Positions 30,396 through 61,565 of a stretch of 64,000 bases of DNA are shown here, piece by piece (positions within the stretch are counted from its first letter, which is position 1; each line of letters opens with the position of its first letter). Location: positions 41,626 through 105,625 of the IMG/VR virus record IMGVR_UViG_3300008216_002531. One strand, 5' to 3'. Origin of the DNA: a virus. The translations under genes and the position numbers were made by a program. The notes under the pieces were generated by a model. It worked only from the letters and a program-made list of their open reading frames with translations, had not been told where the DNA came from and searched no databases.

Positions 30396-30971
30396 CTAAA
30401 GTCCTTCCATTAAAAAAGCCAAGTGGATTAACTCGTAACCCTTAGATACATTCTCTTTGTCTGCTAGATCTAAAAACTCATTCGTAAACTCTGGGTAAGC
30501 CGCATAAAATATGTCTACTAATTTTTCCTCCAGCAACACTTGTTTTTCGTCATTTGGTGGTTTGATTAAATCAATAAAAGTTGAGTCAGGACCAAGTTCT
30601 TCTCCTTCTACATTGTAGTAGATAATAAACTTCGTCGAGAGTTTTAATCTCTCTGTTTTCATCAGAATGTCTTGAAAAATAATTATTCTAGAGGCATAGG
30701 CAGGACAGTCGATGAATACTGGCTTGGTGCTTTCTGAAGAATAATAATGTACGCCTGAAGGCAGAGGGTCTTCTTGAATCTGATATATGCAAATAGTTTC
30801 TTGTTCGTCTTGATCAACAGTTTTTTTAAGAGGGAAAGTAACAGCGCACCCAATGCCATCAAAATCAGAGGCGACGACTTTGACAACATAGTCGTGTTCT
30901 TTGAAGAAATTTACGAGCGCCTGATTATCCATCCTGTAACCTATAAAACGCGCAAGGGGCGTTTTTTGCAC
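30396..30971 (-). CDS. Hypothetical protein
   Basis: ORF coupled to dnaE-C stop. Confidence 0.5.
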   Translation of the reverse strand: MQKTPLARFIGYRMDNQALVNFFKEHDYVVKVVASDFDGIGCAVTFPLKKTVDQDEQETICIYQIQEDPLPSGVHYYSSESTKPVFIDCPAYASRIIIFQDILMKTERLKLSTKFIIYYNVEGEELGPDSTFIDLIKPPNDEKQVLLEEKLVDIFYAAYPEFTNEFLDLADKENVSKGYELIHLAFLMEGL

Positions 30972-32656
30972 TATATTTGGGAAACTTTTTGCACAATAAA
31001 ACCGTCGTCGATCTGGTATCGCCTCTTACCACGAGACAATTCCCCGGAGGACTTTCCGTAAAGCAAAACTGTATTGCCCTCATACAAAAGCCCTTTGTGT
31101 TTTTTCCATTCGTCGCAAAACACAGTCACTGTTTCTAGACATCCGGTATTGTCCTCCACAACCAAGAACCCCATAGGGCTTCCTTTTGACCGTCCATTTT
31201 TTACAACATACTCATTAACATTAGAAACTTGCACTGCTAAAATTATATTACCACGTTTGCCGTCAAAAAACTCTTTACATGTGGAATTTGACCCGCTCGC
31301 ATCACAAGAGTCTACTTCGCTGTAGCTTAGCGCTATTCCCAAAGTTTCTTTTTCTATATTGGACACCCACCCCGGACTATCTTCCAAGGAATAAGGAGGA
31401 TTTTTCAATAGCAGAACTAGACTTTCAACAATAGAGTTTCTTGTGGTGTTAAATGTTCCACCTCCATTCTTTTTGGTGGGAGACAGTTTAGACAAAGCGT
31501 CGGCTAGACACTCCCACTCCTCCTGTCTCTCAACCACCCACTCTTTCTCCTTATCTGTTAGTTTCTGCCATGTTTCAAATTCGTACAACATCCTGCTCCT
31601 ACTCATGCCAAAATGGGACATGGACCCCACAGACACAAGAGAAACCATTATGTTTTTATTGATTTTATGAGACGTATTGACTAAAAATTGATACCATGAC
31701 CAGTCTGCTATTGGTTTTGATAGACTGCTCTCCACGGAGTCTATTACTTGTATCAATTTTTCCACATGTTTTTCTCCAACAGATTTTATATCGTTGAATC
31801 CAAAGTTTATGACTTTATTTCTAATGCTAAACTTGGAATCCATATTGACGACAGAAGGAGGGGAAACTTGTATGCCTGATATTTTAGCATCCCTTATTAG
31901 ATCTCTGACTTCAGACTGGGGATCTTGTTTTCCATTAGCGTAAAATAAATAGTTACAGTAGAAATTTATAGGAAAATGGGCCTTGGCGTAGGCTGACCAG
32001 TAGGCGCAAACAGCATAAGAAACTGCGTGGCTTTTGTTAAAAGCATACCGGTTGGACTTTTCAATCCATCCAAAAATTTCTTCGGTCACTTCGCTAGTAA
32101 CGATTCCTTTACTAGAGGCTCCTTCTAGGAAAGACTCCTTTACTTCTGACATGAGGCCAGCTTGTTTTTTGCCGATAGCTTTTCTCAAGCCGTCTGCTTG
32201 TTGCAAATCAAAGCCCGCTATAACCTGAGCTATTTGCATGCTTTGTTCTTGATATACTAGCACCCCTTGAGTAGACTTTAGGATAGGCTCCAAGGAATCG
32301 TGTAAATATGAAACCTCTTCCGATCCATTTTTTCTGTCTACATAGTGCTGTGTCATTGACTTGCCGTCAATAATAGCTTTTAGACATCCCGGTCTAATAA
32401 GAGCAATAAGAGCGGCTAACTCCTCAATGTTTTTAGGGCGGATTCTTTTTGCCCAAGATTTTCCCAAATTACTTTCTAGTTGAAATACACCTTTGGTTCT
32501 CCCGGTAGATATCAAATCCCAAGTCTTGTCACAATCGTAACCGCATTGGCTGATGTCAAAGCGAGTAGACGGCAATCCGGTTTGCGACAACGTGGTCGGG
32601 TGATCTGGGTCTAGAACTTCAAAAGAACACCCGCAATCAAATTCGTAGTTTTTCAT
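30971..32656 (-). CDS. dnaE: DNA polymerase III alpha, C-terminal half (fingers, HhH, OB)
   Basis: GVFQLES, ALIRPG, VYQEQ, ADGLRKAIGKK, YAFNKSHA, IKSVG, EKETLG; likely start MKNYEF. Confidence 0.92.
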   Translation of the reverse strand: MKNYEFDCGCSFEVLDPDHPTTLSQTGLPSTRFDISQCGYDCDKTWDLISTGRTKGVFQLESNLGKSWAKRIRPKNIEELAALIALIRPGCLKAIIDGKSMTQHYVDRKNGSEEVSYLHDSLEPILKSTQGVLVYQEQSMQIAQVIAGFDLQQADGLRKAIGKKQAGLMSEVKESFLEGASSKGIVTSEVTEEIFGWIEKSNRYAFNKSHAVSYAVCAYWSAYAKAHFPINFYCNYLFYANGKQDPQSEVRDLIRDAKISGIQVSPPSVVNMDSKFSIRNKVINFGFNDIKSVGEKHVEKLIQVIDSVESSLSKPIADWSWYQFLVNTSHKINKNIMVSLVSVGSMSHFGMSRSRMLYEFETWQKLTDKEKEWVVERQEEWECLADALSKLSPTKKNGGGTFNTTRNSIVESLVLLLKNPPYSLEDSPGWVSNIEKETLGIALSYSEVDSCDASGSNSTCKEFFDGKRGNIILAVQVSNVNEYVVKNGRSKGSPMGFLVVEDNTGCLETVTVFCDEWKKHKGLLYEGNTVLLYGKSSGELSRGKRRYQIDDGFIVQKVSQI

Positions 32657-33317
32657 CGGCCAGAGCCTTTTCAAATTTTACCTTGGGAGCAAAATGTCTA
32701 TACAGCTTAAGAAATTTTATCAGGACAGACGCGGTATCTTTCACGTCTTGCAGAGCGTCGTGCGCATTGTCTTTAGGCATTCCCATCCAATCTCTAATAG
32801 AATCCATGCTGACGCTTCTTATATCTGGATTGTTTTCAGTCCACATGAATACATTATTCATTAAGTCCATACTATGGATAGTGTGAAACAACCCCTGCTG
32901 GTTTCTTTTTTTATTCATAGGACCGTATTCTCTACATAAACGATTTGCGATAATCATATCGAAATTATTTATATTGTGTCCGGCGGGTATTGGAGCCGTC
33001 CAACTACCCTTTTTATAATTAAACCTGTCTACGAATTTAGTAAATCTATCCCACACCGTTTTTAAATGTGGGGCTTTTGCTAATTCGGCTCTAGTTTTTC
33101 CATTTACAGCTAGGGCCTCTTCTTCTAAGGGGTCTAATCCAGCAGCTACCGCTTTTTCATCCCCTAGTGGCTTGATCAGAGATTCAAAATATCCATTAGG
33201 TTGTACAGACAGTCTACGACCGTGTATCATTACGGCGGCAATTTGTACTGGTTGAGTTGTCAGTGGGTTTCTACTGCCTGTTTCAAAATCAAACACACAG
33301 ATATCATTATAATTCAT
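32637..33317 (-). CDS. DEDDh 3'-5' exonuclease (DnaQ-like)
   Basis: FDFETG, GHNI.NFD, HDALQD. Confidence 0.85.
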   Translation of the reverse strand: MNYNDICVFDFETGSRNPLTTQPVQIAAVMIHGRRLSVQPNGYFESLIKPLGDEKAVAAGLDPLEEEALAVNGKTRAELAKAPHLKTVWDRFTKFVDRFNYKKGSWTAPIPAGHNINNFDMIIANRLCREYGPMNKKRNQQGLFHTIHSMDLMNNVFMWTENNPDIRSVSMDSIRDWMGMPKDNAHDALQDVKDTASVLIKFLKLYRHFAPKVKFEKALADEKLRI

Positions 33318-34407
33318 CTACAGAGTCCTCTTCTTTTTCAACTAAAAATTCCATCTTATTATTGAAATCTTCAAACGATAGATCTCCATATCTTAGTGTT
33401 TGGCGAGAAAATAATTTGTCATATTTTCCTTCTGCAATAAGCGAGGCCGCACAAGCAGCGCCATATCCTGTGCAACGCTGCATGGCTGAAAAGTTTTCGT
33501 CTGGCGGAACGAGTAGTTCTTGAATTTTTTCATCAATAGATATGTAGATAATAACACAGTCTTCTACTTGATGTTTTGCACAACTTTTTGTGAAGATCTT
33601 TTTAAGAGTTGGTCGATCCAGTTCGCATTCTTCGATTAGCAACTTAATGGTTTTGAGATGTCCCGGCCACCTAAGAGTCTTATATGAAACATGAGTAGCT
33701 CCCAAGTTTTTAAGGCTGTGGACGCTATAAGATGATCCCCCGCTTGTATAAAAAGCTTCTAAAACCCCCAAGCTCTGAGTGGAAACAGTTTCATAGCCTT
33801 CTAGAGACTTAACAGAAGTTATCTCTCCGTTATTTAAGATTGTAGAGTTTTCTGTGTATTCATTAATAAGGCCATCAAGAGACCAGCTACAAAAATAATT
33901 AAAATGATCGTCTTTAGAAGCTCTTCGAGGTAGTCCTCCAACCATTATATTTACTGTTTTTGGTTTTTTTTCATCTTCTTCGGCAATCTGCTTGTATAGA
34001 TTTTCTGTAAGTATGTTTGCTAATCCGGGGGCCAAGCCTAAATCTGTCATTACTGGTTTAGATCCGTTGCTGACAGCAAAGCTATTAATATATTCGCTTA
34101 CTTCTTCATTGCCACCAAGATCACAATATCTAATTCCATTCTTTATGCAATATCTAGCAACATCTTTGTTGTTGTAATATGGGAGAGCAGAAATCACAAC
34201 GTCTGGAAAGGGTCGGGATATTGATTTTGATATGTGGCCTTCTAATTTTGGGATACAATGTGTTTTTGCCGATTGGCTTAAAAAAGAATTGCATTTGTCC
34301 AATGCTTCTTGAGATAGGTCTACTAGTTCTAGCTCGTAGCCAAGTCTTTCCATAGCCCAAGCCGTAGATTGACCCATTCTTCCAGCACCAAAAATAATAG
34401 CTCTCAT
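33307..34407 (-). CDS. Lysine 6-dehydrogenase / saccharopine dehydrogenase family
   Basis: GAGRMG, SALPY, DLGGN, GLAPG, VGGLP, WS.DGLINEY, LEAFYTSGG, YKTLRWPGH, AMQRCTG. Confidence 0.85.
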   Translation of the reverse strand: MRAIIFGAGRMGQSTAWAMERLGYELELVDLSQEALDKCNSFLSQSAKTHCIPKLEGHISKSISRPFPDVVISALPYYNNKDVARYCIKNGIRYCDLGGNEEVSEYINSFAVSNGSKPVMTDLGLAPGLANILTENLYKQIAEEDEKKPKTVNIMVGGLPRRASKDDHFNYFCSWSLDGLINEYTENSTILNNGEITSVKSLEGYETVSTQSLGVLEAFYTSGGSSYSVHSLKNLGATHVSYKTLRWPGHLKTIKLLIEECELDRPTLKKIFTKSCAKHQVEDCVIIYISIDEKIQELLVPPDENFSAMQRCTGYGAACAASLIAEGKYDKLFSRQTLRYGDLSFEDFNNKMEFLVEKEEDSVDEL

Positions 34408-35243
34408 TGTACCGCTCTCCCCTTAAGTTCTTCCCAATCTTTTTCTGGCCTAACCACCAAGTTGGTGTCCCACGCCCCAATTAGAGTGTTGGGAGATATT
34501 CCAAAGTCTGCTGCGTGTTTTATGATAGCGTTGAGATCTTTTGGAAAACAACTTCCGCCGAACCCCAGACTTCCATCTGGGCCGGGAACCGACCAGTGAG
34601 AGCCTCCCAGTCTCTCGTCGTGTATAGCATACTCAATCACCTTGTCGTAGTCAACTCCGTTCGCTTCGCACATAGCGGAGAATTCGTTTGCTAGCGACAC
34701 TTTAGCCGCTAAGAAGCAATTGGTAAGATACTTAACATACTCTGCTATAGTTGAGTCTGTTTTTATAATAGAAGCCTTCGGAAAGATGTTGGCGTAAAAT
34801 TGCTTTAGTCTTGTGGTGGCTGGTCTAGGGCCACCCAGAATAACACGGGTAGTGTTACGAAAATCTTCCGCCGCGTTTCTTTCTAGTAAGAATTCTGGGT
34901 TGAATACTACTTGAGAGTCTTGGCACATCTCATTAATAAAGGAGGTGGTGCCCGGAGGAACTGTAGATTTAATAACTATGATATTTTGTCTGCCAGTTCC
35001 ACACGCTTCCAAACAAACAGTTTTTACGATTGAGGTATCGCACGATCCATCTAGCTTCATTGGTGTTGGAACACATACAAACACCACGTCGCAATCATGG
35101 GATAAGTCTGTTATTGTTTTATGCGTTGATAGATCTGCATGTGCTTTATCATAAGTGTATACCTTATTGTAACAAGAGAAGACTTCGGTCAGCGCCGACC
35201 CTACAAACCCCTGTCCTATTATTCCTATTGCTCTTATTTTCAT
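34404..35243 (-). CDS. UDP-glucose/GDP-mannose dehydrogenase family, short form
   Basis: GQGFVG, CVPTP, KSTVPPG, FNPEFL, GFGGSCFPKD; lacks C-terminal domain; start MKIRA by ATGA overlap. Confidence 0.85.
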   Translation of the reverse strand: MKIRAIGIIGQGFVGSALTEVFSCYNKVYTYDKAHADLSTHKTITDLSHDCDVVFVCVPTPMKLDGSCDTSIVKTVCLEACGTGRQNIIVIKSTVPPGTTSFINEMCQDSQVVFNPEFLLERNAAEDFRNTTRVILGGPRPATTRLKQFYANIFPKASIIKTDSTIAEYVKYLTNCFLAAKVSLANEFSAMCEANGVDYDKVIEYAIHDERLGGSHWSVPGPDGSLGFGGSCFPKDLNAIIKHAADFGISPNTLIGAWDTNLVVRPEKDWEELKGRAVQ

Positions 35244-36448
35244 AGATTTTCTACAGCCTCTTTTATATATTGACACGCTACATCCGCGTCCTCTTTAGAG
35301 AATGTAAGAGCGGGTCTAAGTCTAATTGATCTACTGCCGCATTTTAATACGAGCATATTTTCTTGTAACAACTCTACCATTCTATCTCGAAGTTCTGAGG
35401 ATGGCAGATCAAACGCTATCATGAGTCCTCGCCCCCTTACATTGTCTATTTCGCTTATACTTCTAAGACACCATAATAAATGAGAGCCTACATCGCTAAC
35501 ATCAGCAATCAAATCTTCCCTGTTGATGGCATCTACTATATAGTTAAATCTAACCATATCAACTATATTGCCACCCCATGTAGAATTTATTCTGCCACTA
35601 GTATTGAAGACGTTGTGTTTTACTTCATCAATTCGTTCAGTAGAGCAGAAACCACACACCTGAGTCTTTTTGCCAAAGCACATCATGTCAGGAACAACGT
35701 CGAAATGTTCGTAGGCCCACATCTTGCCAGTTAGCCCCATGCCAGTCTGCACTTCGTCAAATATAAGAAGACACTCGCGCTCATCAGCTATGCGTCTTAG
35801 ATTTTTGAAAAACGCTACCGGAAAATGATTATCTCCACCCTCACCCTGTATCGGCTCTATGATAATCGCAGCAACTTCTTCGTGGACACGGCGTTCGATG
35901 TCTTCCCAATCAGGCTCTACGGTAGTCCATCTAAACTTTGGGAACAGGGCGGTCTTTTCTGGGGTTGTATTGGTCAAAGAGAGTGTGTAGCCTGTCCTGC
36001 CATGAAAAGCGTTCTTGAGATGGAACACATCTAGGTTGTTAATATCAACCGTATGGATATATTTTAGTTTCTTGGCCTTCCAGTCAAATGCGGCTTTGAG
36101 GGCGTTTTCTACCCCAAGAGCGCCACCATCAATGAAAAAGTAGTGTTTAAAATCAGGAGTAATTTCAGAGAATTTCTCTACAAATTCAGCATAAGTACTG
36201 GAATACATATCACTATTAGCAAGCTTAACTCTTCCAGCCACGCCCATTTCGTTTTGTGCTTTTATTAATGCAGAATGTCCCCACCCCAATGGCTGACTGG
36301 CAAATTGTGAATAGCAGTCTAAGTATTTCTTTCCTGTGTTTAAGTCTATAATATAAGAACCAAGGCTCTTCTGTTGGTCTACGACTACATGAAAACCGTC
36401 AACAAGTATGTGGTTCTTTAGCGTGTCTATAGCTTTAATGTCAGGCAT
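35240..36448 (-). CDS. lat: L-lysine 6-aminotransferase (class III PLP)
   Basis: HILVDG, ANSD.YS, GALGVENALKAAFDWK, AFHGRTGYTLSLTNT, EPIQGEGGD, DEVQTG, FGKKTQVCG, INSTWGG. Confidence 0.9.
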   Translation of the reverse strand: MPDIKAIDTLKNHILVDGFHVVVDQQKSLGSYIIDLNTGKKYLDCYSQFASQPLGWGHSALIKAQNEMGVAGRVKLANSDMYSSTYAEFVEKFSEITPDFKHYFFIDGGALGVENALKAAFDWKAKKLKYIHTVDINNLDVFHLKNAFHGRTGYTLSLTNTTPEKTALFPKFRWTTVEPDWEDIERRVHEEVAAIIIEPIQGEGGDNHFPVAFFKNLRRIADERECLLIFDEVQTGMGLTGKMWAYEHFDVVPDMMCFGKKTQVCGFCSTERIDEVKHNVFNTSGRINSTWGGNIVDMVRFNYIVDAINREDLIADVSDVGSHLLWCLRSISEIDNVRGRGLMIAFDLPSSELRDRMVELLQENMLVLKCGSRSIRLRPALTFSKEDADVACQYIKEAVENL

Positions 36449-37227
36449 TTAACCGCTCCTCCCGATTTCATAAATTCTGACATATCGCATATAGATGTCT
36501 TTTTACCAGAAAACGATAAGGAAAACATATCTGATGGGGTCACAACCGTCTTATTTATTTCAATACTGTTACAAAGAAAGTCTTGCGCTTGCTCTTCATG
36601 AACATTTAATACGTCAAGAACTCCTATTTCATGGCCGATCTCCATTAGCTTTTCCAAAATTCTTTCTTGGCTGAACCTAGAAAAGGCTTGTTGATGATAA
36701 ACAACTCTATTTTTCAAAGGAAGAAAACATGTGTCCAAATGATAGAATCTTGGATCAACTAATTCACAGGACACGACATCAACTTTGAGAGTTTTTGAGA
36801 TAATTTCGTGGGCTTCCGGGTCAGTTCTAAATCCATAGCCCATGAACAGGGTATTTTCAAAAAATAGGGCGTCTCCCTCTCCCTCAAAGCAAATGTGGTC
36901 TGGGATTTCAATTACTCTATAGCCGTGTTTTAGAAACCAATCTTTAAAGAACCACTTCTCGTCTCGTCTTTCCTGATGTCTAAAATTTGATAATATCACT
37001 GTGTCTCGGTATACTAGTCCTGCGTTTGCGGTAAATACCATGTCGGGGTATCCACGCTCAGGCTCAATAAAGCTCAGTCTGGCTCCCGTTTTAGACAAAA
37101 GATCAACCATTTTCTCCCACTGGGAAAGAGCTAGGGCGGGATCGATATCATTATCAATATCCATCCAAGGATTGATTTCGTAGTCTATATTAAAATATGT
37201 TGGTTTACACAGTAAAAGATCTGTCAT
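36427..37227 (-). CDS. Amidinotransferase/guanidino-modifying enzyme, ArgZ/AgrE arginine dihydrolase-like
   Basis: YEINPWM, PDMVFTANAG, ER..E, FEGEGD, GYGFRT, FYHLDTCF, EFMKSGGAVKCLT; start MTDLL by ATGA overlap. Confidence 0.85.
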   Translation of the reverse strand: MTDLLLCKPTYFNIDYEINPWMDIDNDIDPALALSQWEKMVDLLSKTGARLSFIEPERGYPDMVFTANAGLVYRDTVILSNFRHQERRDEKWFFKDWFLKHGYRVIEIPDHICFEGEGDALFFENTLFMGYGFRTDPEAHEIISKTLKVDVVSCELVDPRFYHLDTCFLPLKNRVVYHQQAFSRFSQERILEKLMEIGHEIGVLDVLNVHEEQAQDFLCNSIEINKTVVTPSDMFSLSFSGKKTSICDMSEFMKSGGAVKCLTLKL

Positions 37228-38714
37228 TTGCTCCCGGTGCTCATACCTTGTGGAAAGTTCAGAGAGTCTCCATGATTGACCGTCCAAGCCACTTCATGAG
37301 TAACGGACCTGAATGTACGAGCGGCGCTGGGCTGTCCGTTTCCAGACTTTTTCACCCCTCCAAATCCAAGATGAGATTCAGCAGCAATACTGCCGCCATT
37401 CCAGTAGCCAAGACCAAAATCACATTCGTTGCGAATGCGTCGAGCAACCTTAAAACTTTCTGTTACTACGCCAAGAGCAAGCCCATAGTCAGTGTCATTG
37501 TAAATCCTAATAGCATTATCAATTGTATCGTAAGGAATAATTGACACATGCGGCCCGAATACTTCTTGCTTAAGATATGGAACATCTCTCCACTCCGTTT
37601 GATATACCGTGGGTGTTAAAAACAAGCTATCGCCATCTCTCTCTCCCATTAGCAGAACATCCGCCTCTGGGTCCGCTTCGACCATCTTGTTAAACTCTAT
37701 GACTCTTTCGAGTTGCTTTTCATTAATAAGAGGGCCGTAGAAGGTGTTGTCGTCGAATGGGTCTCCAGTCTGTAGATCACCACTTCTATTGGCAAATTCG
37801 TCTGCAAATTTGTTGTATAGAGAACGATGAACAATTAGCCTGCTAGCAGACACACAACGTTGACCAGATAGTTTGTAAGCACTAGCCAAGCACGCGGCCA
37901 TTGCCATGTCATAATTCGCATCTTCATGAACAATTACTGCCGATTTACTTCCCATCTCACAAGAACAGGTTTTGTGCCAGCTTTCCGCACAGACTTTACG
38001 AACATGCATTCCTACGTCGGCGCTTCCAGTGAAGCAAATATGATCCACGTCTTCGTGAATTAGATCATCTCCGACTTGTCCATCCCCATGAATCATATTG
38101 AAAACGCCCGGCGGAAAACCAGCTTCTCTGTAAAGCTCCGCAGTAATCTGGCCAACCCAAGGTACATCCTCGCTCGGCTTAAGAATTACAGTATTCCCTT
38201 CAACAAGAGCAGGAGCAGCGCACCAAAAACCACCAATCGCAAAAGGAAAATTAAAAGGCGCAATGATCGCAACGACCCCTTTTGGCTTCCTAAGCATAAA
38301 CGCATCTTTTTCTGGCAACTCCGAAGCAATCGCTTCACCATAAGGCATCCTCCCTGTACTAAAGGCATACTGAGCCATGTGCAACGCTTCGTTAACTTCG
38401 GCAACAGACTCGTTAAAAACTTTTCCTGTTTCTGTGCTTATAATTTCTGCAATATGGTCTTTGTTTTCTTCGATTAACTTTGCAACCTTAAGAAAATATT
38501 CTGCTCGTTGAAATCTGCTAAGACTTCTCCATTCACCAAAGGCCTTCTTAGCGGACATATAAGCGGTTTCTACGTCCAGCAGAGATGCTTGCGGAAAAGC
38601 CCCCACGATTGTTCCTGTGGCCGGATTAATACTGTCAAAAAGAGACTCTTCGTCTCCATCAATGAATTGACCATCAATGTAATGTAATCCCTTTACGATT
38701 TGATAAGTTGTCAT
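37224..38714 (-). CDS. Aldehyde dehydrogenase (aminoadipate/glutamate semialdehyde type)
   Basis: PFNFP, KPSE, FTGS, EMGSK, SGQRC, EVFGP, FGGVKKSGNG. Confidence 0.9.
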   Translation of the reverse strand: MTTYQIVKGLHYIDGQFIDGDEESLFDSINPATGTIVGAFPQASLLDVETAYMSAKKAFGEWRSLSRFQRAEYFLKVAKLIEENKDHIAEIISTETGKVFNESVAEVNEALHMAQYAFSTGRMPYGEAIASELPEKDAFMLRKPKGVVAIIAPFNFPFAIGGFWCAAPALVEGNTVILKPSEDVPWVGQITAELYREAGFPPGVFNMIHGDGQVGDDLIHEDVDHICFTGSADVGMHVRKVCAESWHKTCSCEMGSKSAVIVHEDANYDMAMAACLASAYKLSGQRCVSASRLIVHRSLYNKFADEFANRSGDLQTGDPFDDNTFYGPLINEKQLERVIEFNKMVEADPEADVLLMGERDGDSLFLTPTVYQTEWRDVPYLKQEVFGPHVSIIPYDTIDNAIRIYNDTDYGLALGVVTESFKVARRIRNECDFGLGYWNGGSIAAESHLGFGGVKKSGNGQPSAARTFRSVTHEVAWTVNHGDSLNFPQGMSTGSK

Positions 38715-39235
38715 TTTGAGTCCTTTGTAGATTCCATTAAATTTTTCACTGAGTTTTGACAGAAGCCCTTTTGGCCTCGCTCTATTAGCTCTATGATTAC
38801 CCCGCCTAGATGTGGCAGAGGTTTTGTAAATATTTGCCTGAGTTCATCTTCAGGACAGTCAATAATTTCTTCCGTGAGAAATTCTACCCCATTATCTCGC
38901 CAGTCTTTTACTACGCGGTCTATTCCAAACACTTGATATGCAAAATGGTGCACTCCTCCAACGCCTCCCCTGTCGGCCACCCATTGCCCCACAATCGAGT
39001 TCTCGTCCCCGTCTGATATAAACACTTCTGGAGCAACATGTCTGTGTCCTCCAGCCTCTATGGTGGGAACATTGTTCATTTTTTCTTTAGGGGTCATCGC
39101 AATACATTCAGCCTTGGAGCCGTCATCGAAAACGATATCGAACTCAGTTCCAATTTTATACTGGAGTATTGCGCTGAGAAAGCTAGCGGTTTTTTGTCTA
39201 TCTGAAACTCTATAGGCTATATGATCCAATCTCAT
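38711..39235 (-). CDS. VOC-family protein resembling HPPD C-terminal catalytic domain
   Basis: LDHIAY, GVHHFAY.V, GVEFL, LRQIFT.P, IELIER...GF. Confidence 0.7.
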   Translation of the reverse strand: MRLDHIAYRVSDRQKTASFLSAILQYKIGTEFDIVFDDGSKAECIAMTPKEKMNNVPTIEAGGHRHVAPEVFISDGDENSIVGQWVADRGGVGGVHHFAYQVFGIDRVVKDWRDNGVEFLTEEIIDCPEDELRQIFTKPLPHLGGVIIELIERGQKGFCQNSVKNLMESTKDSK

Positions 39236-39459
39236 CTATATAGCTTCCTTTTTATATCTACGTACTGTTCTACAGCTTTGTTAAGATCTTCGTATAATTG
39301 ACTGAACTTAAATCTATAATCGTCGCAGTCCACTTGATATCGGGCGCCTCGGGCGCCTGAATTGCGCAAGTAGTCATTTATGCAGCACAATGACAGTCTA
39401 TTGCACTCAACTGATGATCCATCTTCTAGCACTCTTGTATAAATATCTGTTTTGGTCAT
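39232..39459 (-). CDS. Hypothetical protein
   Basis: ATGA-coupled on both sides. Confidence 0.6.
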   Translation of the reverse strand: MTKTDIYTRVLEDGSSVECNRLSLCCINDYLRNSGARGARYQVDCDDYRFKFSQLYEDLNKAVEQYVDIKRKLYR

Positions 39460-41375
39460 TTGATTATTCCGGTAGATAATTGATTAGATACTCCCATGAT
39501 TTTATCCAGAAAACTGATGCCAAGAATATCAAATTTAACATGGCCCATCGCCTCCAAATCTTGCATCTCCAAACCCGCGATCTTTTCAGATCCTCTTTTT
39601 TCCCTAACCATTGGACACACTTCGCTTAAGTTTTTAGAAGAAATCACTACGCCAGCCGCATGCTTACCTTGAGATTTATATGTTCCTTCAAGCCTAATAG
39701 CTTGCCCAAACAATCTGCTTAATTCCCCGCTAAGACTGCCATCGTCTTCTATACGACACCATTCTTTAAGTTGTTCTGGTTGGTTTATCAAAGCCCATCT
39801 TATAATAGAAGGGTCTTCCATTTCTTGTAATTGGTCTGAAATTTCTGCTTCAGATGGAATATTTTTGGTGATATAGTTCATCTCTTCAAAACTGCAAGCG
39901 TCGTGTACGCGCAGAACTTCTTTCAGAGATGTGCGACCTTGCATTCGCCCAAGCGTCACCATTTGCCCCACATTCTCTTTGCCGTATTTTTGACGCATAT
40001 ACTCAATAACGCGCGCTCTTTTTTCGGTGGGGACATCAATATCAATATCTGGAAGAGAAACATGGTCTTCGGTATTACGCCCAGCATTGTAAAATCTTTC
40101 AAAGATTAGACCGTACTCTATTGGGTCTACCTCTGTTATACCAATCAAGTGTGAAATAAGGCAACCTGCGGCAGAACCTCTTCCCGGTCCCGGCAGCCAG
40201 CCCTGCTCCCTTACATGGTTTACTATGTCTTGAACTATAAGAAAATATCCTGACAAATTTGCATCCTGTATAACCGAGAGTTCCTCTTTGATTCTTTCGG
40301 CATATAATTTCGAATTAGTTTCTTCTGACGCCTTGCCAGTGTCGGCTATTTTACTTTGCCAGCCATGTCTGCATAAAGATCGTAAATATTCATCTTCAGA
40401 CATATTGTCCGGGCAAGAAAATTTAGGGAGCATGGGTTTGCCTAATATGTTGTATTCTTCGCACATATCAGCAATTAGCTTGGTGTTGTAGATTTCCTCG
40501 TCAGTATTTATAACTTGAATTTCTTCTTCTGAGGGGATGTGATATTTGTTTGAGCAAAAGAAACCGCCTAAGCCAACGTCTTCAGAATTGTTAAGCTTTT
40601 GCTCTACCTTCTTTAGAGTTGTCCGCATCGCAGAACACAAGAGCACTCTTTGGTCTGGGGCGTCTTCAGAGGAGCAATAGTGAGAGTCTGCCGTAGCTAT
40701 ACAGGGTATGCCGGTTTTCTTGCTGATATACCTTAAGGCTTCAGCGGTTATTCTTTGGGAGGGACACTGGTCTTGATCTATCAATTGTATTTCTAAAAAG
40801 AAATTGTCCTTGCCGAAAATGTCTCTATATTTTTCAGCCAGCAGAGTAGTTTTGCTAAGCCAGTCTACATCAATATATTGTTTCGCCTCTTCGTAAGTAG
40901 CCGCACCATAGGCAGACTTTTTGTCAGCAAATATGATATCTGCAAGTTGGCTTCCTATATGTCCAGAAAAGCTAATTAAATTTCCGTCACAGTATTCGGC
41001 CAGTGTGTCCAGATCTAATCGTGGCTTGTGGTAAAAGACTTCCTCGTCATTGCTGGCAGAGGTAGCTTCTATCAGCTTTGTCCAACCCTCTAGATTCTTA
41101 GCCAGAACTACCAGATGACTAAGCTTCCTATTGGTTTTATCTTTTACGCAGGGGTCTTGGTCACATAAATAAAACTCGCAACCTAAAATGGGTTTTATAT
41201 TTTTTTCTTTCATCGCCCTGACAAACGAGACGGCCCCTGAGATCGTCCCATGATCGGTCACGGCGCATGCATCGTACCCAAGGTTCGAGCAGCGTTCTGC
41301 GACCTGTGAGGGCTTCGAGAGACCGTCCAGCAAACTGTAGTGGGTGTGCAAGTGTAGAGGAGTCCAAATTGGCAT
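39456..41375 (-). CDS. dnaE: DNA polymerase III alpha, N-terminal half (PHP + palm/thumb)
   Basis: HLHTHYSLLDG, TDHG, GCEFY, DSHY, GRGSAAG, FERF, PDIDID, HAAGVVI, KFDILG. Confidence 0.93.
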   Translation of the reverse strand: MPIWTPLHLHTHYSLLDGLSKPSQVAERCSNLGYDACAVTDHGTISGAVSFVRAMKEKNIKPILGCEFYLCDQDPCVKDKTNRKLSHLVVLAKNLEGWTKLIEATSASNDEEVFYHKPRLDLDTLAEYCDGNLISFSGHIGSQLADIIFADKKSAYGAATYEEAKQYIDVDWLSKTTLLAEKYRDIFGKDNFFLEIQLIDQDQCPSQRITAEALRYISKKTGIPCIATADSHYCSSEDAPDQRVLLCSAMRTTLKKVEQKLNNSEDVGLGGFFCSNKYHIPSEEEIQVINTDEEIYNTKLIADMCEEYNILGKPMLPKFSCPDNMSEDEYLRSLCRHGWQSKIADTGKASEETNSKLYAERIKEELSVIQDANLSGYFLIVQDIVNHVREQGWLPGPGRGSAAGCLISHLIGITEVDPIEYGLIFERFYNAGRNTEDHVSLPDIDIDVPTEKRARVIEYMRQKYGKENVGQMVTLGRMQGRTSLKEVLRVHDACSFEEMNYITKNIPSEAEISDQLQEMEDPSIIRWALINQPEQLKEWCRIEDDGSLSGELSRLFGQAIRLEGTYKSQGKHAAGVVISSKNLSEVCPMVREKRGSEKIAGLEMQDLEAMGHVKFDILGISFLDKIMGVSNQLSTGIIK

Positions 41376-41376
41376 T

Positions 41377-41928
41377 TCAGCGTCCTACTGGGTCAAGATC
41401 CTTGTATGGCATGTTGTAACAATCTGTGGAAGGTTTCCACCTATTAGAATGATCCATGTCATCCTTTACCCAAAAGCGGGCCTGTTCAAAGTATTCCTTT
41501 GCGTCCTTTTGTCCACAAATCCAAGCCCTGACAGGCTTGTTGTTCTTAAATTGTATACTGGTAAAGATGTATATATCCGGTTTTTGATGCGCGCTGGTTT
41601 CTGCTACAGAAGCATCGTAATGATCTAGAGGAGGCACAGACCTTCTTTTAGATTTGACTTCAATTTTTTTACCGTCCTTTATCAAATCATGATTGTACTT
41701 CTCCTCACCCTCATTATTGCTGATTATCTCGGCTTGGATGTAATCGGCAACGATCTCCTCCCCGAGATAGCCAGCAAAATTCCCCTTGCCCTCAAGGATG
41801 GAATTATTTATCACACCTAAATTATCAGCCTTAACCTTACAACTCTCTACCATTTCATCGGTAAAGTAGACTTGAACAATATTACTTTTTTTTGTTGAAC
41901 TTTTCATAAATGTATCGTGCTGTCGCAA
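41377..41928 (-). CDS. Hypothetical PD-(D/E)XK-like phage protein
   Basis: GYLGE...YNHDL...IEVKSK; start uncertain. Confidence 0.45.
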   Translation of the reverse strand: MRQHDTFMKSSTKKSNIVQVYFTDEMVESCKVKADNLGVINNSILEGKGNFAGYLGEEIVADYIQAEIISNNEGEEKYNHDLIKDGKKIEVKSKRRSVPPLDHYDASVAETSAHQKPDIYIFTSIQFKNNKPVRAWICGQKDAKEYFEQARFWVKDDMDHSNRWKPSTDCYNMPYKDLDPVGR

Positions 41929-42835
41929 CGTCCTCTATCGCTAGTCCTGTGGCGTCGAATAGTGTTGTCCTACATCCGCTAGTTTCTACCCTGCCCTGAA
42001 TCACTTCTGCTATCGGACACCATATTTGAGAAATCTTATTCTTTTTAGCATACTGTATTTCTCCAGAATGGGAGCACTGTGCCCACTCATCATACGCAAC
42101 TAGATCAACATTTTCAAGAACGCACGGATGCAGTTCTCTTTTTCCTTCTGCGTCTGCTCCAACAGCATTAATATGAACTACAGGTTTGAGATATCTATAC
42201 TCAATAAATGGTTGACGTGAAGGGGTTAGCGTTGTAATTATATCCACGTCCCACAAACAATTTTCAAGATCATTATGAACTTCTATTTCTACAGGGCTTC
42301 CCTGCCTAACTTCTAAATAATTCAATTCATCTTTTAACTTATTTGCTCGTTCTTCACTGAGGTCAAATAATCGAACAACCTCAATGTCTCTTACGGCAAG
42401 GACCGCTTCTATCTGCCTGAGTGTTTGATTTCCGCAGCCGATAAACGCTGCTTTTTTGGAATACTTGGGGGATAAGTATCTGGTTGCCACTCCAGTCACT
42501 GCGGCGGTACGAATGGCGGTAAGAGTTTCTCCGTCTAAGATTGCTAATAGTTTTCCAGAAGCCACATCGTTTATAAGAACCTTAGCGAATATGTTAATTT
42601 TGCGCTTTGTTCCTGTTTCGTCTAGGTGTACTCCACACCATTTAATCCCCGCCGTATCTCCTACAACCGCTGGCATAGATCTGAAATCGCCATTAGGTAT
42701 GTCCATATACACTTTTGGCGGCATCTGTGTGTTTTCAATGTTTATAAATAAGTCTTCAACAACTTCTATGCATTCTGGAACTGATAGTATCTGCGCTACT
42801 TCGTCGTTTGTAAAGTATTTAACCGGGAGCATCAT
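41882..42835 (-). CDS. Ornithine cyclodeaminase / mu-crystallin family
   Basis: MPPK, FRSMPA, GIKW, TAIRTAA, GCGNQ, HINAVGAD..GKREL, FDATGLAIED. Confidence 0.88.
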   Translation of the reverse strand: MMLPVKYFTNDEVAQILSVPECIEVVEDLFINIENTQMPPKVYMDIPNGDFRSMPAVVGDTAGIKWCGVHLDETGTKRKINIFAKVLINDVASGKLLAILDGETLTAIRTAAVTGVATRYLSPKYSKKAAFIGCGNQTLRQIEAVLAVRDIEVVRLFDLSEERANKLKDELNYLEVRQGSPVEIEVHNDLENCLWDVDIITTLTPSRQPFIEYRYLKPVVHINAVGADAEGKRELHPCVLENVDLVAYDEWAQCSHSGEIQYAKKNKISQIWCPIAEVIQGRVETSGCRTTLFDATGLAIEDVATARYIYEKFNKKK

Positions 42836-43841
42836 AATACCCTATATTGAAGTCTGGTTTGGTACACTCTGCGCTTGTCCTTTCAATACCATTCTTTTTG
42901 ATATGATCTTGCACATATCTACAGATGTTGGTATCTGTACCTTCCCAGTTATTCTTATAATAATCGCAAAGCTTAGTGCACTTCCAATGCGACTGGCTCT
43001 GTGACAATAATTTAGGGCTTTTATTGTTCTTGATTTCGTTAAATCTTTTTCTGAGCATCTTAAGAAATAATTCTTTAGACCCATCATCAAAGCACAGAGA
43101 AAATGGTCCTCCATCTTTTACATAGAAAATGGTCATTATCGCCTGATCGTAATCAGGATACAGCTTGGATATGGCGTAGTAATAGAGAAGCAATTGCGGG
43201 TCACTCTCTAATTTATTATAGTCCTTTTCTTCGCCTGTGGCCCAATTAATTCTTCTACCAGTCTTCCAATCTACAACTTCTATAACTCCGTCTTCGGCTT
43301 CTGTAACTAAATCTATAGTTCCTTTTATGGCCAGCTTACCCTTTAACTTTGTGCCGTCATCAAGAGTGTAGTCGTACTCTGCCCAAGGCTCATCTATCTC
43401 TATGTCGAAGTGAGGCTCAGTGTCTACAATCTTTCTGTTTCTGGGGTCAAACTGACCATCATTATAATGCAGACCCAGCCACGTCCATTTGCGGCATTCG
43501 TTTTTTTCTTTGTCTGTATATTCATGGACGCAGTTGGAGGTGTAGTGTTCGAAACTTTTATCTACTATTTTGTTAACAAACTCTTCTGAGTATAGTTTGC
43601 TACTAGTGAATGTAATCCTTCCAAGTGCGTCGTCTGTGACGCTCATAAGCCCAGACTCTGGAAGGCTCTGGAGCCTTTTTTTGCACGACGCCAGACACTC
43701 CATCACCTTATGGACGATGGTTCCCTGCTGGGCTTTTTTACCTGACGTTGAGGGGAAACCCAAGACATAATTTATGTAATACTGCTGCTGACAGTAATCA
43801 TAACTATTATATGACGAACTTCGTATATAAGCTACGAGCAT
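42819..43841 (-). CDS. PD-(D/E)XK exonuclease, Cas4/AddB-like
   Basis: N-terminal C, GTIVH, GTIDLV, DWKTG, QLLLY, C..LC....C. Confidence 0.8.
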
Positions 43842-45366: not shown

Positions 45367-45981
45367 TTACTTTTTTCGGGTTTCTTCTTTAAAATCTTCC
45401 AAGTCAATTTTCTGTTGCATTTCTTCATTCAAAGCTTCGTGACGCGCGGCCTGTACCGCTCTTCTTTCACTGTTCTTATATTCCTCAAGTTTTTTTGGAT
45501 TGTTGTATCCCTTTCCTTTTTTTCTCCGTTCCCGTTTATTTTTTTTCTTGTTGCGTGCTTTTATTTCGTCTTGTTGTTGTCTGGTTCTGTGAGGTCTTCT
45601 CTTGTGCTTCTTTTCCGTAGCTCGATCTGCTATTATAGAACTAAGAACACCATTCGCTTGGGCTAAAGTTCTTTTCACCCCTTTTCCGAAAAATTCGATC
45701 CTGACATGACAGCTTTTACACAGGACTAATAAGCCATCTAAGCTTTTTCCAGATAGGTTTGATTCATCGTAGTGGTAGTGGTGTATTTGGGCTTGTTTGC
45801 TCTTTAAAGGTTTTGCACCACAAGCAACACATTCGTTACCTTCATCTTTAATCAGCCGGGATCTTATATCTTTCCACAAGGAGCTTCGTAGGTACTGTTT
45901 ATAACTGTCAAACCCCAACCATTCTAGAGTTTGGTCTCTAAGGTAATACTCATTGCATATATGATTTATTTTCGTAGCCAT
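45367..45981 (-). CDS. HNH endonuclease with basic C-terminal tail
   Basis: YL.S..W..IR, CVACG, IHH, LCKSCH. Confidence 0.75.
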   Translation of the reverse strand: MATKINHICNEYYLRDQTLEWLGFDSYKQYLRSSLWKDIRSRLIKDEGNECVACGAKPLKSKQAQIHHYHYDESNLSGKSLDGLLVLCKSCHVRIEFFGKGVKRTLAQANGVLSSIIADRATEKKHKRRPHRTRQQQDEIKARNKKKNKRERRKKGKGYNNPKKLEEYKNSERRAVQAARHEALNEEMQQKIDLEDFKEETRKK

Positions 45982-53586: not shown

Positions 53587-53918
53587 CGTTGCAGACTCCA
53601 TAAAACAAAGATTTGCATGAGTGCCACCCCAATAATGGAAGCCCAAGCCCAGAGTTTTTTCCAGTGATATAATATAACAAGGATTCCAAGAGCAAGCGTC
53701 GTCCCAACAGTCTTCACCCCCATAAACAAGGCTATATCCCCACCGTCTTCTCGTATGAGCCATCTGCCCACTGGATTAAGCTCAAGCTCTAACAAATATT
53801 CTTGTGTCTTTATAGACGTGTATATATCAACAGCAGAAGCAACCCCAATAAAAAGCCACAGTTGGGCGTATGCTGCTGTGTAGGCGTATTTGTTAAACAG
53901 CCTCGTGAAAGTTTTCAT
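53583..53918 (-). CDS. Membrane protein (DUF5658-like)
   Basis: Three hydrophobic segments, D...T...ELNP motif. Confidence 0.6.
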   Translation of the reverse strand: MKTFTRLFNKYAYTAAYAQLWLFIGVASAVDIYTSIKTQEYLLELELNPVGRWLIREDGGDIALFMGVKTVGTTLALGILVILYHWKKLWAWASIIGVALMQIFVLWSLQR

Positions 53919-54325
53919 GATTGTATTGGATTGCCATATCTGTCTTTACCTTCTAGATTAGACACTTCTTCCCAAACGTCTGACCAGCCAGATTCGTCGT
54001 CTGAACGAACCCTAGCGGCTTTGTCGTCTATATAGATGACGCCAGCGGGTTTGCCCATGTAGGCGTGATGATATTTAACGCCGTGGTCCTCCAGCCAGTC
54101 TGTCCACTCCCTATATCCGCGTCCATATTGACGATGGATGTTTCCCTTCTCTCTGTCTCCATACCTAGCGGTATATAACGTAATAACAAAACCCATGTCA
54201 TATAGCTTATTGACTTGATCTATGCCGTGTTGTAAAGGACCAGCCTTGCTATAGTCTCCACCGTGGTTTTTATCCGCTATTACACCATCACAGTCCACTA
54301 TTAGTGTCTTAAGTGAATCGGCCAT
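53915..54325 (-). CDS. Small HAD-family phosphatase (capsule biosynthesis phosphatase-like)
   Basis: DCDGVI, YTAR, GKP, YIDDKA. Confidence 0.8.
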   Translation of the reverse strand: MADSLKTLIVDCDGVIADKNHGGDYSKAGPLQHGIDQVNKLYDMGFVITLYTARYGDREKGNIHRQYGRGYREWTDWLEDHGVKYHHAYMGKPAGVIYIDDKAARVRSDDESGWSDVWEEVSNLEGKDRYGNPIQS

Positions 54326-54355: not shown

Positions 54356-54372
54356 ATCGACGTGGATGCACG

Positions 54373-54446
54373 TACCCTCGGCAGGACTCGAACCTGCAAC
54401 CTACGGTTTAGAAGACCGTTGCTCTGTCCTGTTGAGCTACAAGGGC
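54373..54446 (-). tRNA. tRNA-Arg (anticodon UCU)
   Basis: GCCCTTG acceptor stem, D arm, ACGGT-CT TCT AA-ACCGT anticodon arm, GGTTCGAGTCC T arm; CCA not encoded. Confidence 0.93.
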
Positions 54447-59723: not shown

Positions 59724-60634
59724 ACCTCTAAAATTTCTAAACCGTGAACACAGTGTTTAATGTCTTCCTCTATTTGCAATTGCTTGACAAATTCTTGCCT
59801 CTCTATGTCAAACACGAGCAGACGGGCAGGGGAAGACCCTATTATAGCATAATCCTTGTTTCTAGTCAAGCCTCTATTCCAGTTATTTTCTGCTATCTTA
59901 TCTACTGAAAATTTAGCATAATCAGTAGCTGGAATGGGAAAGAAGCTTGATTGTCCGTTCTTAATAATTCCTAAATGTTTTAAGCTGGTCATGTTAATCA
60001 TGGTGCAGTCGTTGTATTCATAAAAGTTGTGTTGAAAACTTTTGACTCCGTTTATGGATGGCATGGATTCTGCGACTTTCATGGTGTGAAAATCATACAG
60101 GTGAGTAATCAGGGCAGAGAATACCAGTCTGCCAGAAAAGGAAGAAATTGAGTTAATATGATATTTGTCATCTGGCACAGCTTCTTCAGGATCTATTTGT
60201 CTTTTACCTGTGAATACCTTGTGGTCTTCTTTGCTTTCTCCTAAGATTTCCCAAAACTCAGTGATGTTGAGGTCTAGGTCAAGCTTGACTATTGCATCAT
60301 ACCCAGTAGATGTCACCCATATATGATTATCGAAGTAGCAGATTTCGTGTATAGATTTGAAAAAATCTTTATCTTGTTTTTGGTTAGTTATTTCGTATGT
60401 TTGTTTGTCTAGTTCTAACAATCCGCTGGAATCAGCAACTATTATTTTGTCTTCTAAGACAGCTATGCCTCTTAACCCTCTCTCTCCACCCCTAGTATTC
60501 TCATTGTCGAAATCTCCAGCGTATGGAATATACTTGAGGATTTCATCATTGTTAATATCAATGACATATAATCCTCCGTGCACAGACCCTTGTTCAGCAG
60601 CCCGTATAACTGTTGAGCAAATTACTTTCATCAA
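59720..60634 (-). CDS. Beta-propeller protein (DUF4915/arylsulfotransferase-like), paralog of 15012-16037
   Basis: HGGLYVID, GERGLRGIA, IHEI, DKYHINS, FQHN, NRGL, IGSSPA. Confidence 0.5.
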   Translation of the reverse strand: MMKVICSTVIRAAEQGSVHGGLYVIDINNDEILKYIPYAGDFDNENTRGGERGLRGIAVLEDKIIVADSSGLLELDKQTYEITNQKQDKDFFKSIHEICYFDNHIWVTSTGYDAIVKLDLDLNITEFWEILGESKEDHKVFTGKRQIDPEEAVPDDKYHINSISSFSGRLVFSALITHLYDFHTMKVAESMPSINGVKSFQHNFYEYNDCTMINMTSLKHLGIIKNGQSSFFPIPATDYAKFSVDKIAENNWNRGLTRNKDYAIIGSSPARLLVFDIERQEFVKQLQIEEDIKHCVHGLEILEV

Positions 60635-61565
60635 ACCACTCTATAGTCCTTTTCAGCCCGTCGTGTAAATCTGTAGAAGCCTCAAAGCCGAAATAGGATT
60701 CTGCCATCTGAGTGTCGAGACACCTTCTAGGCTGACCATCTGGTTTGGACGTGTCAAAAACTATAGACCCATTAAAGCCAACAAGTTCAGCGATCAGTCC
60801 AACTAGTTTCTCAATTGTAATTTCTTTGCCGGTTCCTATATTAACTGGATATGGATCATTATATTTTTCCACAGCCGTGACTATAGCTTCCGCACAGTCA
60901 TCTACATACAGGAATTCTCTACTGGCTTTGCCACTACCCCAGACTACGACCTCTTTGTCATTATTGGCGATTGCCTGTTTGAATTTTAAAATTAGGGCTG
61001 GAATGACATGGCTACTGTTGGGATCAAAATTGTCTCCGGGGCCATACATATTGACTGGTATTAATGTAACACCATTCATTCCGTATTGATTTCTATAGGC
61101 TTGAAGCATTTCCATAAGAGCTTTTTTGGCAACCCCATAAGGCGCATTGGTCTCTTCTGGATATCCATTCCATATATCAGATTCTTTAAACGGGACGGGA
61201 GTGAATTTTGGGTAAGAACAAACTGTGCTAGTTAGCAAAAACTTTTCACAGTTATGTTTTCTTGCTTCTTCTATGAGATTAAGACCCATAGCCATGTTGT
61301 CGTAAAAAAACCTTCCGGGGTTCTCTTTATTCGCTCCAATACCACCAACCCTAGCAGCTAAATGTACTACTATATCAGGCTTATGATAGTTAAATAAATG
61401 CGCTACATCTACATACCTAGTAAGGTCAAGAGACATTGGCGCGCGAGAACCCGGAAGGTCTATTACGTTGCTGTATCCAGAAGCTTTTAATTTTCTACAT
61501 ACAACACGACCTAGAAATCCTTTTCCACCCGTAACTAAAATCTTACTTTTAGCTTTTATGCCCAT
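60594..61565 (-). CDS. fcl: GDP-L-fucose synthase
   Basis: TGGKGFLG, HLAARVGGIGAN, CSYPK, YGVAKK, PVNMYGPGDNF, SHVIPALI, VWGSG, REFLYVDD, KPDGQPR. Confidence 0.92.
   Translation of the reverse strand: MGIKAKSKILVTGGKGFLGRVVCRKLKASGYSNVIDLPGSRAPMSLDLTRYVDVAHLFNYHKPDIVVHLAARVGGIGANKENPGRFFYDNMAMGLNLIEEARKHNCEKFLLTSTVCSYPKFTPVPFKESDIWNGYPEETNAPYGVAKKALMEMLQAYRNQYGMNGVTLIPVNMYGPGDNFDPNSSHVIPALILKFKQAIANNDKEVVVWGSGKASREFLYVDDCAEAIVTAVEKYNDPYPVNIGTGKEITIEKLVGLIAELVGFNGSIVFDTSKPDGQPRRCLDTQMAESYFGFEASTDLHDGLKRTIEWFDESNLLNSYTGC

Follow-up and report, generated by a model that had tools for sequence, protein, structure and literature searches.

A composite cassette of amino-acid enzymes within the split DNA polymerase operon of a marine phage, with a predicted role in arginine and lysine breakdown

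Results

A widespread phage trio with an inserted gene pair

We analyzed a stretch of 64,000 nucleotides from the IMG/VR virus record IMGVR_UViG_3300008216_002531 (positions 41,626 to 105,625; hereafter the window, whose own numbering is used below), focusing on a block of genes for amino-acid enzymes embedded among phage replication genes. This block consists of a widespread phage trio, encoding a vicinal oxygen chelate (VOC) protein, an aldehyde dehydrogenase (ALDH) and a protein resembling L-lysine 6-dehydrogenase (LysDH-like), into which a pair of genes has been inserted, one for an ArgZ-like guanidino hydrolase and one for an aminotransferase resembling L-lysine 6-transaminase (LAT). A gene of the ornithine cyclodeaminase (OCD)/mu-crystallin family and a gene for a truncated UDP-glucose dehydrogenase-like (UGDH-like) protein are separate additions. 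A sequence-only reading of the same DNA had taken the genes for one multi-step unit, a view that this composite build replaces. Judging from the sequences of the enzymes, we give somewhat better than even chances to the cassette acting as an auxiliary pathway, which would turn arginine, ornithine and lysine into ammonia, glutamate and 2-aminoadipate during phage replication.

The composite build emerged from co-occurrence counts across 80 IMG/VR contigs that carry the VOC gene. ALDH lies directly downstream of VOC in about 51 of them, and a LysDH-like gene follows VOC-ALDH in about 42, often directly adjoining. The ArgZ-like and LAT-like genes were found together in all 11 loci having either, always after ALDH, and the pair is present in at least 12 contigs besides this window. 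The order VOC-ALDH-ArgZ-LAT-UGDHt(-LysDH-like), where UGDHt is the truncated UGDH-like gene, occupies the same site in the three closest relatives and other genomic sites in at least nine further IMG/VR contigs, so that the co-occurrence in related phages on which the sequence-only reading depended is borne out. Placement of the block between the N-terminal half of dnaE (dnaE-N) and the exonuclease gene is confined to the three closest relatives; on contig 3300025274_001348 (L003/L030), the block lies about 30 kb from dnaE. In two contigs with LAT (84 and 119 kb), a LysDH-like gene is missing, which fits LAT replacing the LysDH-like enzyme in the same step. In terms of history, the trio would be old and the ArgZ-LAT pair would have been inserted into it.

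Purifying selection acts on the cassette genes. Comparisons between relatives are saturated at synonymous sites, and dN/dS is given only where dS was computable: it is at most 0.1 for all enzyme genes except the LysDH-like gene, as in the replication genes, and 0.145 for the LysDH-like gene, a figure from the comparison with L015 only, the other two comparisons being saturated. The identities of individual genes form a mosaic (LAT is 76% identical to its counterpart in L011 and 86% to that in L012, with 86% and 65% for VOC), which points to recombination.

The same trio takes up other genes elsewhere. Some other marine phages encode a SpeD-like pyruvoyl decarboxylase or a ClpP-like protease between ALDH and the LysDH-like gene (L147, L150, L178, L179 and L181; L142, L147, L156, L161, L174 and L175), and a class I fructose-bisphosphate aldolase gene precedes the LysDH-like gene in L124, L126, L129-131 and L194. 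A HAD-like protein of 136 aa (window 53915-54325; phrog_1238, annotated as phosphoheptose isomerase) is encoded 15 kb from the cassette, and its homologue sits inside or beside the VOC-ALDH-LysDH-like module in about 25 other viral contigs.

The cassette is carried by a phage and is not an assembly artifact

The contig comes from a virus and is no chimera. The window itself carries phage replication genes, and more than 25 IMG/VR contigs share its backbone of recombinase, helicase, primase, PD-(D/E)XK nuclease, dnaE-N, exonuclease, the C-terminal half of dnaE (dnaE-C), single-stranded DNA-binding protein (SSB), sigma factor and glycosyltransferase; one cassette-bearing relative of 119 kb encodes RIIA (phrog_612, E 6e-134). 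Nearly the same DNA turns up in marine metagenomes from many studies. Run X3 has a contig that agrees with the window letter for letter and covers 30847-38229, and a second that covers 38334-40612; contigs from X4 and X6 (2025) span the dnaE-N/VOC, LAT/UGDH-like/LysDH-like and exonuclease/LysDH-like junctions. Since contigs from other studies cross these junctions, the block is an insertion and not an assembly chimera.

The viral assignment made by the sequence-only reading thus stands on replication genes, the RIIA-encoding relative and bridging contigs, but not on the terminase and capsid genes that it had named as markers: Pfam models for terminase (PF03237, PF03354) and HK97 capsid (PF05065) found no match in three related viral records, which are fragments 51-79% complete. 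PHROGs did not recognize the giant proteins encoded on the plus strand. INPHARED held no close relative (dnaE-N below 35% identity, helicase below 28%) and no phage with the cassette set; the VOC gene occurred there only in two huge uncultured phages. CheckV estimates for the relatives suggest a genome of about 150 kb.

Overlapping junctions tie the block to the polymerase genes

From dnaE-N to dnaE-C, all nine junctions overlap, six of them as ATGA, in agreement with the sequence-only reading. The ATGA overlaps join dnaE-N to a 75-aa open reading frame (ORF), this ORF to VOC, VOC to ALDH, ALDH to ArgZ (ATG at 37227), LAT to the UGDH-like gene (ATG at 35243) and the UGDH-like to the LysDH-like gene, and the longer overlaps measure 22 nt (ArgZ to LAT), 11 nt (LysDH-like to exonuclease) and 20-38 nt (exonuclease to dnaE-C). 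The six enzyme genes named by that reading are all clustered as it had placed them and its family calls hold, although it had missed the 75-aa ORF and the UGDH-like gene. Likewise, its placement of the cluster inside the polymerase operon is right for the genes from VOC to LysDH-like, which lie between the dnaE halves, but not for the OCD-family gene, which lies upstream of dnaE-N and is separated from it by a gene for a protein of 176-183 aa.

Most of the approximately 25 relatives have dnaE split with the DnaQ-like exonuclease between its halves, including those without a cassette (L011-L036); L028 differs, with the exonuclease gene upstream and the dnaE halves abutting. As the split is also present in cassette-less relatives, it is older than the insertion of the cassette.

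Predicted activities of the inserted pair

The ArgZ-like protein aligns end to end with Synechocystis ArgZ (6JV0/6JUY) and Anabaena AgrE (6LRF), with an E-value of 1e-60. It shares with these cyanobacterial enzymes (Sll1336 and Alr4995) the guanidino-modifying fold and the motifs FTAN, FYHLDTC and KCLTL, which hold the catalytic Cys and His and a conserved Asn in the alignment to 6JV0 and 6JUZ. The Asn is the residue mutated in 6JUZ, the N71S entry; variant sequences in the PDB suggest a role for it in the second hydrolysis. Unlike ArgZ and AgrE, the phage protein lacks a C-terminal cyclodeaminase-type domain and consists of the 266-aa hydrolase domain on its own. It also falls below the NCBIfam Arg_dihydro equivalog cut-off (NF052232; 249 bits against 450) and matches the model of Mycobacterium tuberculosis (Mtb)-type dimethylarginine dimethylaminohydrolase (DDAH) nearly as well (233 bits against a cut-off of 300). 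Its best cellular relatives, about 46% identical, are found in Verrucomicrobiota, Nitrospirota and Planctomycetota.

The LAT-like protein matches M. tuberculosis LAT (2CIN), the aminotransferase of the LAT-Pcd route of lysine catabolism, over its full length (E 2e-102) and has both the pyridoxal phosphate-lysine motif FGKKTQVCG and the Glu of QGEGG. It scores just under the TIGR03251 cut-off (467.7 bits against 520.8), and differs from the mycobacterial enzyme in being about 45 aa shorter and in always being paired with an ArgZ-like gene. These three features suggest that the phage form may also act on ornithine. Proteins of this type (400-402 aa) form a large marine clade, with more than 120 clusters at 90% identity in marine metagenomes.

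Predicted activities of the trio

For the LysDH-like family, the profile search against the PDB returned 3ABI from P. horikoshii, an L-lysine 6-dehydrogenase, as the best solved relative (full length, E 4e-39); matches to saccharopine reductases were weaker (AASS, E 3e-19). An assignment as carboxyspermidine dehydrogenase was rejected, the match covering only the Rossmann motif (E 4e-4). The ALDH has the catalytic Cys of GQRC and the Glu of EMGSK.

The VOC family is almost entirely viral: its Atlas clusters are 77-100% viral, and a match was found in only one of 401 sampled Pseudomonadota genomes. The AlphaFold2 (AF2) model of the protein has a predicted local distance difference test score (pLDDT) of 87.8. 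Among its Foldseek matches, methylmalonyl-CoA epimerase (MMCE) ranked first by E-value, and hydroxymandelate synthase and the C-domain of 4-hydroxyphenylpyruvate dioxygenase (HPPD) ranked first by TM-score (0.71-0.74). The protein resembles the latter two in its VOC fold, its His/His/Glu positions and its C-terminal helix, and resembles MMCE in fold, sequence profile and overall size. HPPD has two domains and about 350-390 aa, whereas the 174-aa phage protein has only one domain; it matched only the HPPD C-domain and scored 38 bits against the TIGR01263 cut-off of 277. Its invariant residues are H5, E70, H96/H97 and E149, and so include, unlike those of HPPD, an additional Glu as the fourth metal-site residue, a feature shared with MMCE and glyoxalase I.

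The OCD-family and UGDH-like additions

The sequence-only reading had the OCD-family enzyme perhaps making proline or pipecolate. The protein proved nearer to archaeal alanine dehydrogenase: its closest solved relative is the A. fulgidus enzyme 1OMO (E 3e-52), followed by the Pyr2C reductase 6T3E (E 1e-35), against E-values of 3e-20 for ornithine cyclodeaminase (1U7H) and 8e-16 for lysine cyclodeaminase. It has the dinucleotide-binding motif GCGNQ and scores 131 bits with the OCD model NF005762 (cut-off 350). Going by these similarities, it may be alanine-dehydrogenase-like, a ketimine reductase or a cyclodeaminase. The gene is present in the cassette-less relative L013 and is linked to a LysDH-like gene, in other arrangements, in L124, L126 and L129-131.

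The UGDH-like protein has GxGxxG and the catalytic Cys of GGSCFPKD, and consists of the N-terminal and central domains without the C-terminal sugar-nucleotide-binding domain; its AF2 model (pLDDT 86) accordingly matches GDP-mannose dehydrogenase (GMD) and UGDH over these two domains only. Its family is largely viral (Atlas clusters 83-100%). Short versions are also encoded by other marine phages, once next to a nucleotide-sugar epimerase gene, which suggests that the protein probably belongs to sugar metabolism and not to the basic-amino-acid pathway.

Cellular counterparts are partial and scattered

The whole cassette was found in none of 80 bacterial loci having an ArgZ-like gene. In a few of these, the gene lies near a class III aminotransferase gene or near LAT and ALDH (L054, L073, L106). 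Of the cellular loci found, L054, from the Verrucomicrobiales metagenome-assembled genome UBA11399, comes nearest to the ArgZ-LAT-ALDH set, with the ArgZ-like gene within 6 kb of ALDH and of a LAT gene whose product is 45% identical to the phage LAT.

A LysDH-like homologue was present in 35 of the 401 sampled Pseudomonadota genomes; this tally includes one unpublished genome, G391, no locus of which was used. The homologue adjoins an ALDH gene in 11 of 20 inspected bacterial loci. All four of the adjoining ALDHs that were tested scored above the cut-off for 1-piperideine-6-carboxylate (P6C) dehydrogenase (P6CDH; 754-828 bits against 730), whereas the phage ALDH partner belongs to another subfamily. 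In two loci, HglS is encoded in the same operon, in one of them together with an FAD-linked oxidase. These operons (for example L239 and L255) bring together a saccharopine-dehydrogenase-family homologue, an ALDH and a VOC-fold enzyme, and we regard them as a known template that parallels the phage trio, pairing lysine dehydrogenase, semialdehyde dehydrogenase and a VOC-fold enzyme acting on 2-oxoadipate. They differ from the phage trio in that its gene order is reversed, its ALDH is of another subfamily and its VOC protein is unrelated to HglS by sequence. A homologue of the FAD-linked 2-hydroxyglutarate dehydrogenase was found neither in the viral loci fetched nor in the window. Since neither the phage ALDH nor the phage VOC is an orthologue of its bacterial counterpart, a role for VOC in such a route is suggested by position and fold only.

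In Herbaspirillum chlorophenolicum (G004), both halves of the phage cassette have counterparts, which are unlinked: a LysDH-HglS-P6CDH operon (L255) and, elsewhere, an ArgZ-like gene directly after a class III aminotransferase gene (L106).

A proposed route from basic amino acids to ammonia and glutamate

In the pathway that we favor, the ArgZ-like hydrolase would convert arginine to ornithine, two NH3 and CO2. The LAT-like and LysDH-like enzymes would take the terminal amino group off lysine, and probably off ornithine too, giving aminoadipate semialdehyde/P6C or glutamate semialdehyde/1-pyrroline-5-carboxylate (P5C); LAT would yield glutamate in the process, and the LysDH-like enzyme NH3 and NAD(P)H. 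ALDH would oxidize the semialdehyde to 2-aminoadipate or glutamate. The OCD-family dehydrogenase might provide a 2-oxo acid, and VOC may carry out a later step on such an acid, analogous in position to that of bacterial HglS but not homologous in sequence. The net effect would be to move the nitrogen of arginine and lysine into NH3 and glutamate for nucleotide synthesis. As the cassette lies inside a replication and nucleotide-metabolism transcription unit, its enzymes should be made while DNA is copied.

Several observations weigh against this route. The ALDH, which the sequence-only reading had assigned to the P6C route, is not of the P6C-dehydrogenase family: it scores 271 bits with the P6C/aminoadipate-semialdehyde dehydrogenase model NF050084 (cut-off 730), shares only 26-30% identity with bacterial P6C dehydrogenases, and lies far under the cut-offs of all NCBIfam equivalogs, fitting no curated subfamily. 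With scores below both the ArgZ and the Mtb-type DDAH cut-offs, the ArgZ-like enzyme may instead have DDAH or deiminase activity. The VOC protein combines its HPPD-like features with the four-residue metal pattern of MMCE (H, E, H, E), and gave no Pfam match to HglS (PF07063) and a probability of 0.4% in an hhalign comparison with bacterial HglS, which is also absent among the Foldseek matches listed for it (to rank 50). Within the window LAT and the LysDH-like enzyme are redundant, about 29 contigs carry VOC without an adjoining ALDH, and other phages interleave unrelated genes (ClpP, SpeD-like, class I aldolase, HAD-like, UGDH-like).

A more far-reaching version appears rather doubtful to us. 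Here, the virus-specific VOC protein of 174-190 aa would stand in for HglS as a new, minimal Fe(II) 2-oxo-acid dioxygenase. Marine phages would then have a full pathway of their own leading from lysine, and where ArgZ-LAT is present also from arginine, to 2-hydroxyglutarate/2-oxoglutarate, glutamate and ammonia, with parts that are not orthologous to those of the bacterial pathway.

We also weighed readings other than nitrogen salvage. The cassette could be biosynthetic, supplying a product that would serve the phage as a DNA counter-ion, osmolyte or building block, for instance in its large glycosylation system; candidates are ornithine on the way to putrescine, proline or pipecolate, and 2-aminoadipate. 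The SpeD-like pyruvoyl decarboxylase gene found directly before the LysDH-like gene in five related loci would suit this, homologues of SpeD in phages reportedly being ornithine or arginine decarboxylases (PMC10407285), but this window has no SpeD-like gene, and the LysDH-like protein resembles carboxyspermidine dehydrogenase over the Rossmann motif alone. Proline- or pipecolate-forming ketimine reductases are among the members of the OCD family, which would also suit this reading. The ALDH step, on the other side, is oxidative and irreversible, as is typical of breakdown. A 20-kb island of glycosyltransferase and methyltransferase genes lies downstream, but every relative has this island, while the cassette is accessory. 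On this evidence, we regard a biosynthetic role as improbable.

Nor do we think it likely that the genes form no pathway at all and that the site is a permissive island gathering independent, host-derived metabolic genes, each acting alone. Gene content indeed varies among phages (ClpP, SpeD-like, aldolase, HAD-like, UGDH-like and GlmS genes nearby), the LAT and VOC identities to L011 and L012 are mosaic, VOC often stands alone, UGDH-like genes elsewhere lie beside sugar epimerase genes, and the whole set was found in no cellular genome searched. However, the adjacency of VOC and ALDH and the pairing of ArgZ with LAT hold strictly even between distant phages, the trio has a parallel in the bacterial LysDH-P6CDH(-HglS) operons, and start/stop overlaps run through the whole block. 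Very improbable, in our judgment, is a role in host manipulation, in which depletion of arginine and lysine or a shift in 2-oxoglutarate and glutamate would shut down host translation or stress signaling, or exclude competing phages. LAT consumes 2-oxoglutarate, a signal of nitrogen status, and the genes lie in the early/replication region; on the other side, no regulatory or effector-like component was found and the same enzymes serve catabolism in cells, although the results here do not separate such a role from nitrogen salvage.

Organization of the surrounding locus

Between 7.2 and 64 kb of the window, every gene is on the minus strand. Transcription runs from ribonucleotide reductase (RNR; 55560-57743) through dUTPase, PhoH, tRNA-Arg(TCT), UvsX-like recombinase, DnaB helicase, primase, HNH, dNMP kinase, ThyX and the PD-(D/E)XK nuclease (42819-43841) to the genes of Table 1, after which come SSB, a sigma factor and the 20-kb glycosyltransferase/methyltransferase island. 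The cassette thus has ThyX, dNMP kinase, dUTPase, RNR and PhoH among its neighbors, which speaks for the favored route. Matches to promoter and terminator consensus sequences were weak and lay inside coding sequence, with counts about 2-3 standard deviations above those of shuffled controls.

Table 1 Genes from the OCD-family gene to dnaE-C, in order of transcription (window positions)
Feature	Position	Strand	Basis
OCD/mu-crystallin family NAD enzyme, 317 aa	41882..42835	(-)	PF02423, E 5e-71
Replication-backbone protein without family, 176-183 aa	41377..41907	(-)	Kept beside PD-(D/E)XK/dnaE-N
dnaE N-terminal half (PHP + Pol III alpha core)	39456..41375	(-)	PF02811, PF07733
75-aa ORF	39232..39459	(-)	ATGA overlaps with dnaE-N and VOC
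Single-domain VOC metalloenzyme (predicted), 174 aa	38711..39235	(-)	Pfam Glyoxalase_4 + HPPD-like C-terminal helix/tail
NAD(P) aldehyde dehydrogenase, 496 aa	37224..38714	(-)	PF00171, E 7e-129
Stand-alone ArgZ/DDAH-type guanidino hydrolase, 266 aa (ATG 37227)	36427..37227	(-)	6JV0, E 1e-60
L-lysine 6-transaminase-like class III aminotransferase, 402 aa	35240..36448	(-)	2CIN, E 2e-102
Truncated UDP-glucose/GDP-mannose dehydrogenase-like protein, 279 aa	34404..35243	(-)	PF03721 + PF00984 only
L-lysine 6-dehydrogenase-like protein, saccharopine-dehydrogenase family, 366 aa	33307..34407	(-)	Profile vs 3ABI, E 4e-39
DnaQ-like 3'-5' exonuclease	32637..33317	(-)	Between dnaE halves in relatives too
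dnaE C-terminal half	30971..32656	(-)	TIGR00594, E 5e-91, model positions 577-1020

Two small genes of Table 1 have no recognizable family. The 176-183-aa protein had no match in Pfam or PHROG, and its gene keeps its place next to PD-(D/E)XK/dnaE-N in relatives without the cassette. The 75-aa ORF, which fills an apparent gap of 220 nt after dnaE-N, gave no family match and has orthologues in the three closest relatives only (L119, L120, L127); small ORFs 5' of VOC in different phage groups showed no detectable relationship to one another.

Further features of the locus include the tRNA-Arg gene (anticodon TCT; 54372-54446), which lies between PhoH and the HAD-like gene, and two HNH/homing-endonuclease-like genes (45367-45981 and 8482-9264), the first of which has no counterpart in any relative, suggesting a mobile insertion. 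Glycosylation genes occupy 8000-29600 and 60594-61565 and encode GT1 and GT2 glycosyltransferases, methyltransferases (including a sugar C-methyltransferase), nucleotidyltransferases and a nucleotide-sugar epimerase; the first glycosyltransferase of the island is kept in nearly all relatives.

Discussion

Auxiliary genes of phages redirect host photosynthesis, phosphate metabolism and nucleotide metabolism. The cassette resembles the known nitrogen and nucleotide auxiliary metabolic genes in placing a host-like function by nucleotide-metabolism genes in a lytic-type phage genome, and differs from them in encoding several consecutive steps of amino-acid breakdown together. We found no paper on a viral module of this kind, or on a phage with the whole set, in line with the novelty that the sequence-only reading had claimed.

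The analysis draws attention to two virus-specific enzyme families, the minimal HPPD/MMCE-like VOC protein and the truncated UGDH-like dehydrogenase, both of which are cheap to express and assay. The LAT type occurs in more than 120 marine metagenome clusters, and the trio in dozens of viral contigs. If the cassette is active, phages in the ocean would commonly use it to draw nitrogen for DNA synthesis from the arginine and lysine of their hosts, and the flow of nitrogen in infected cells would be affected.

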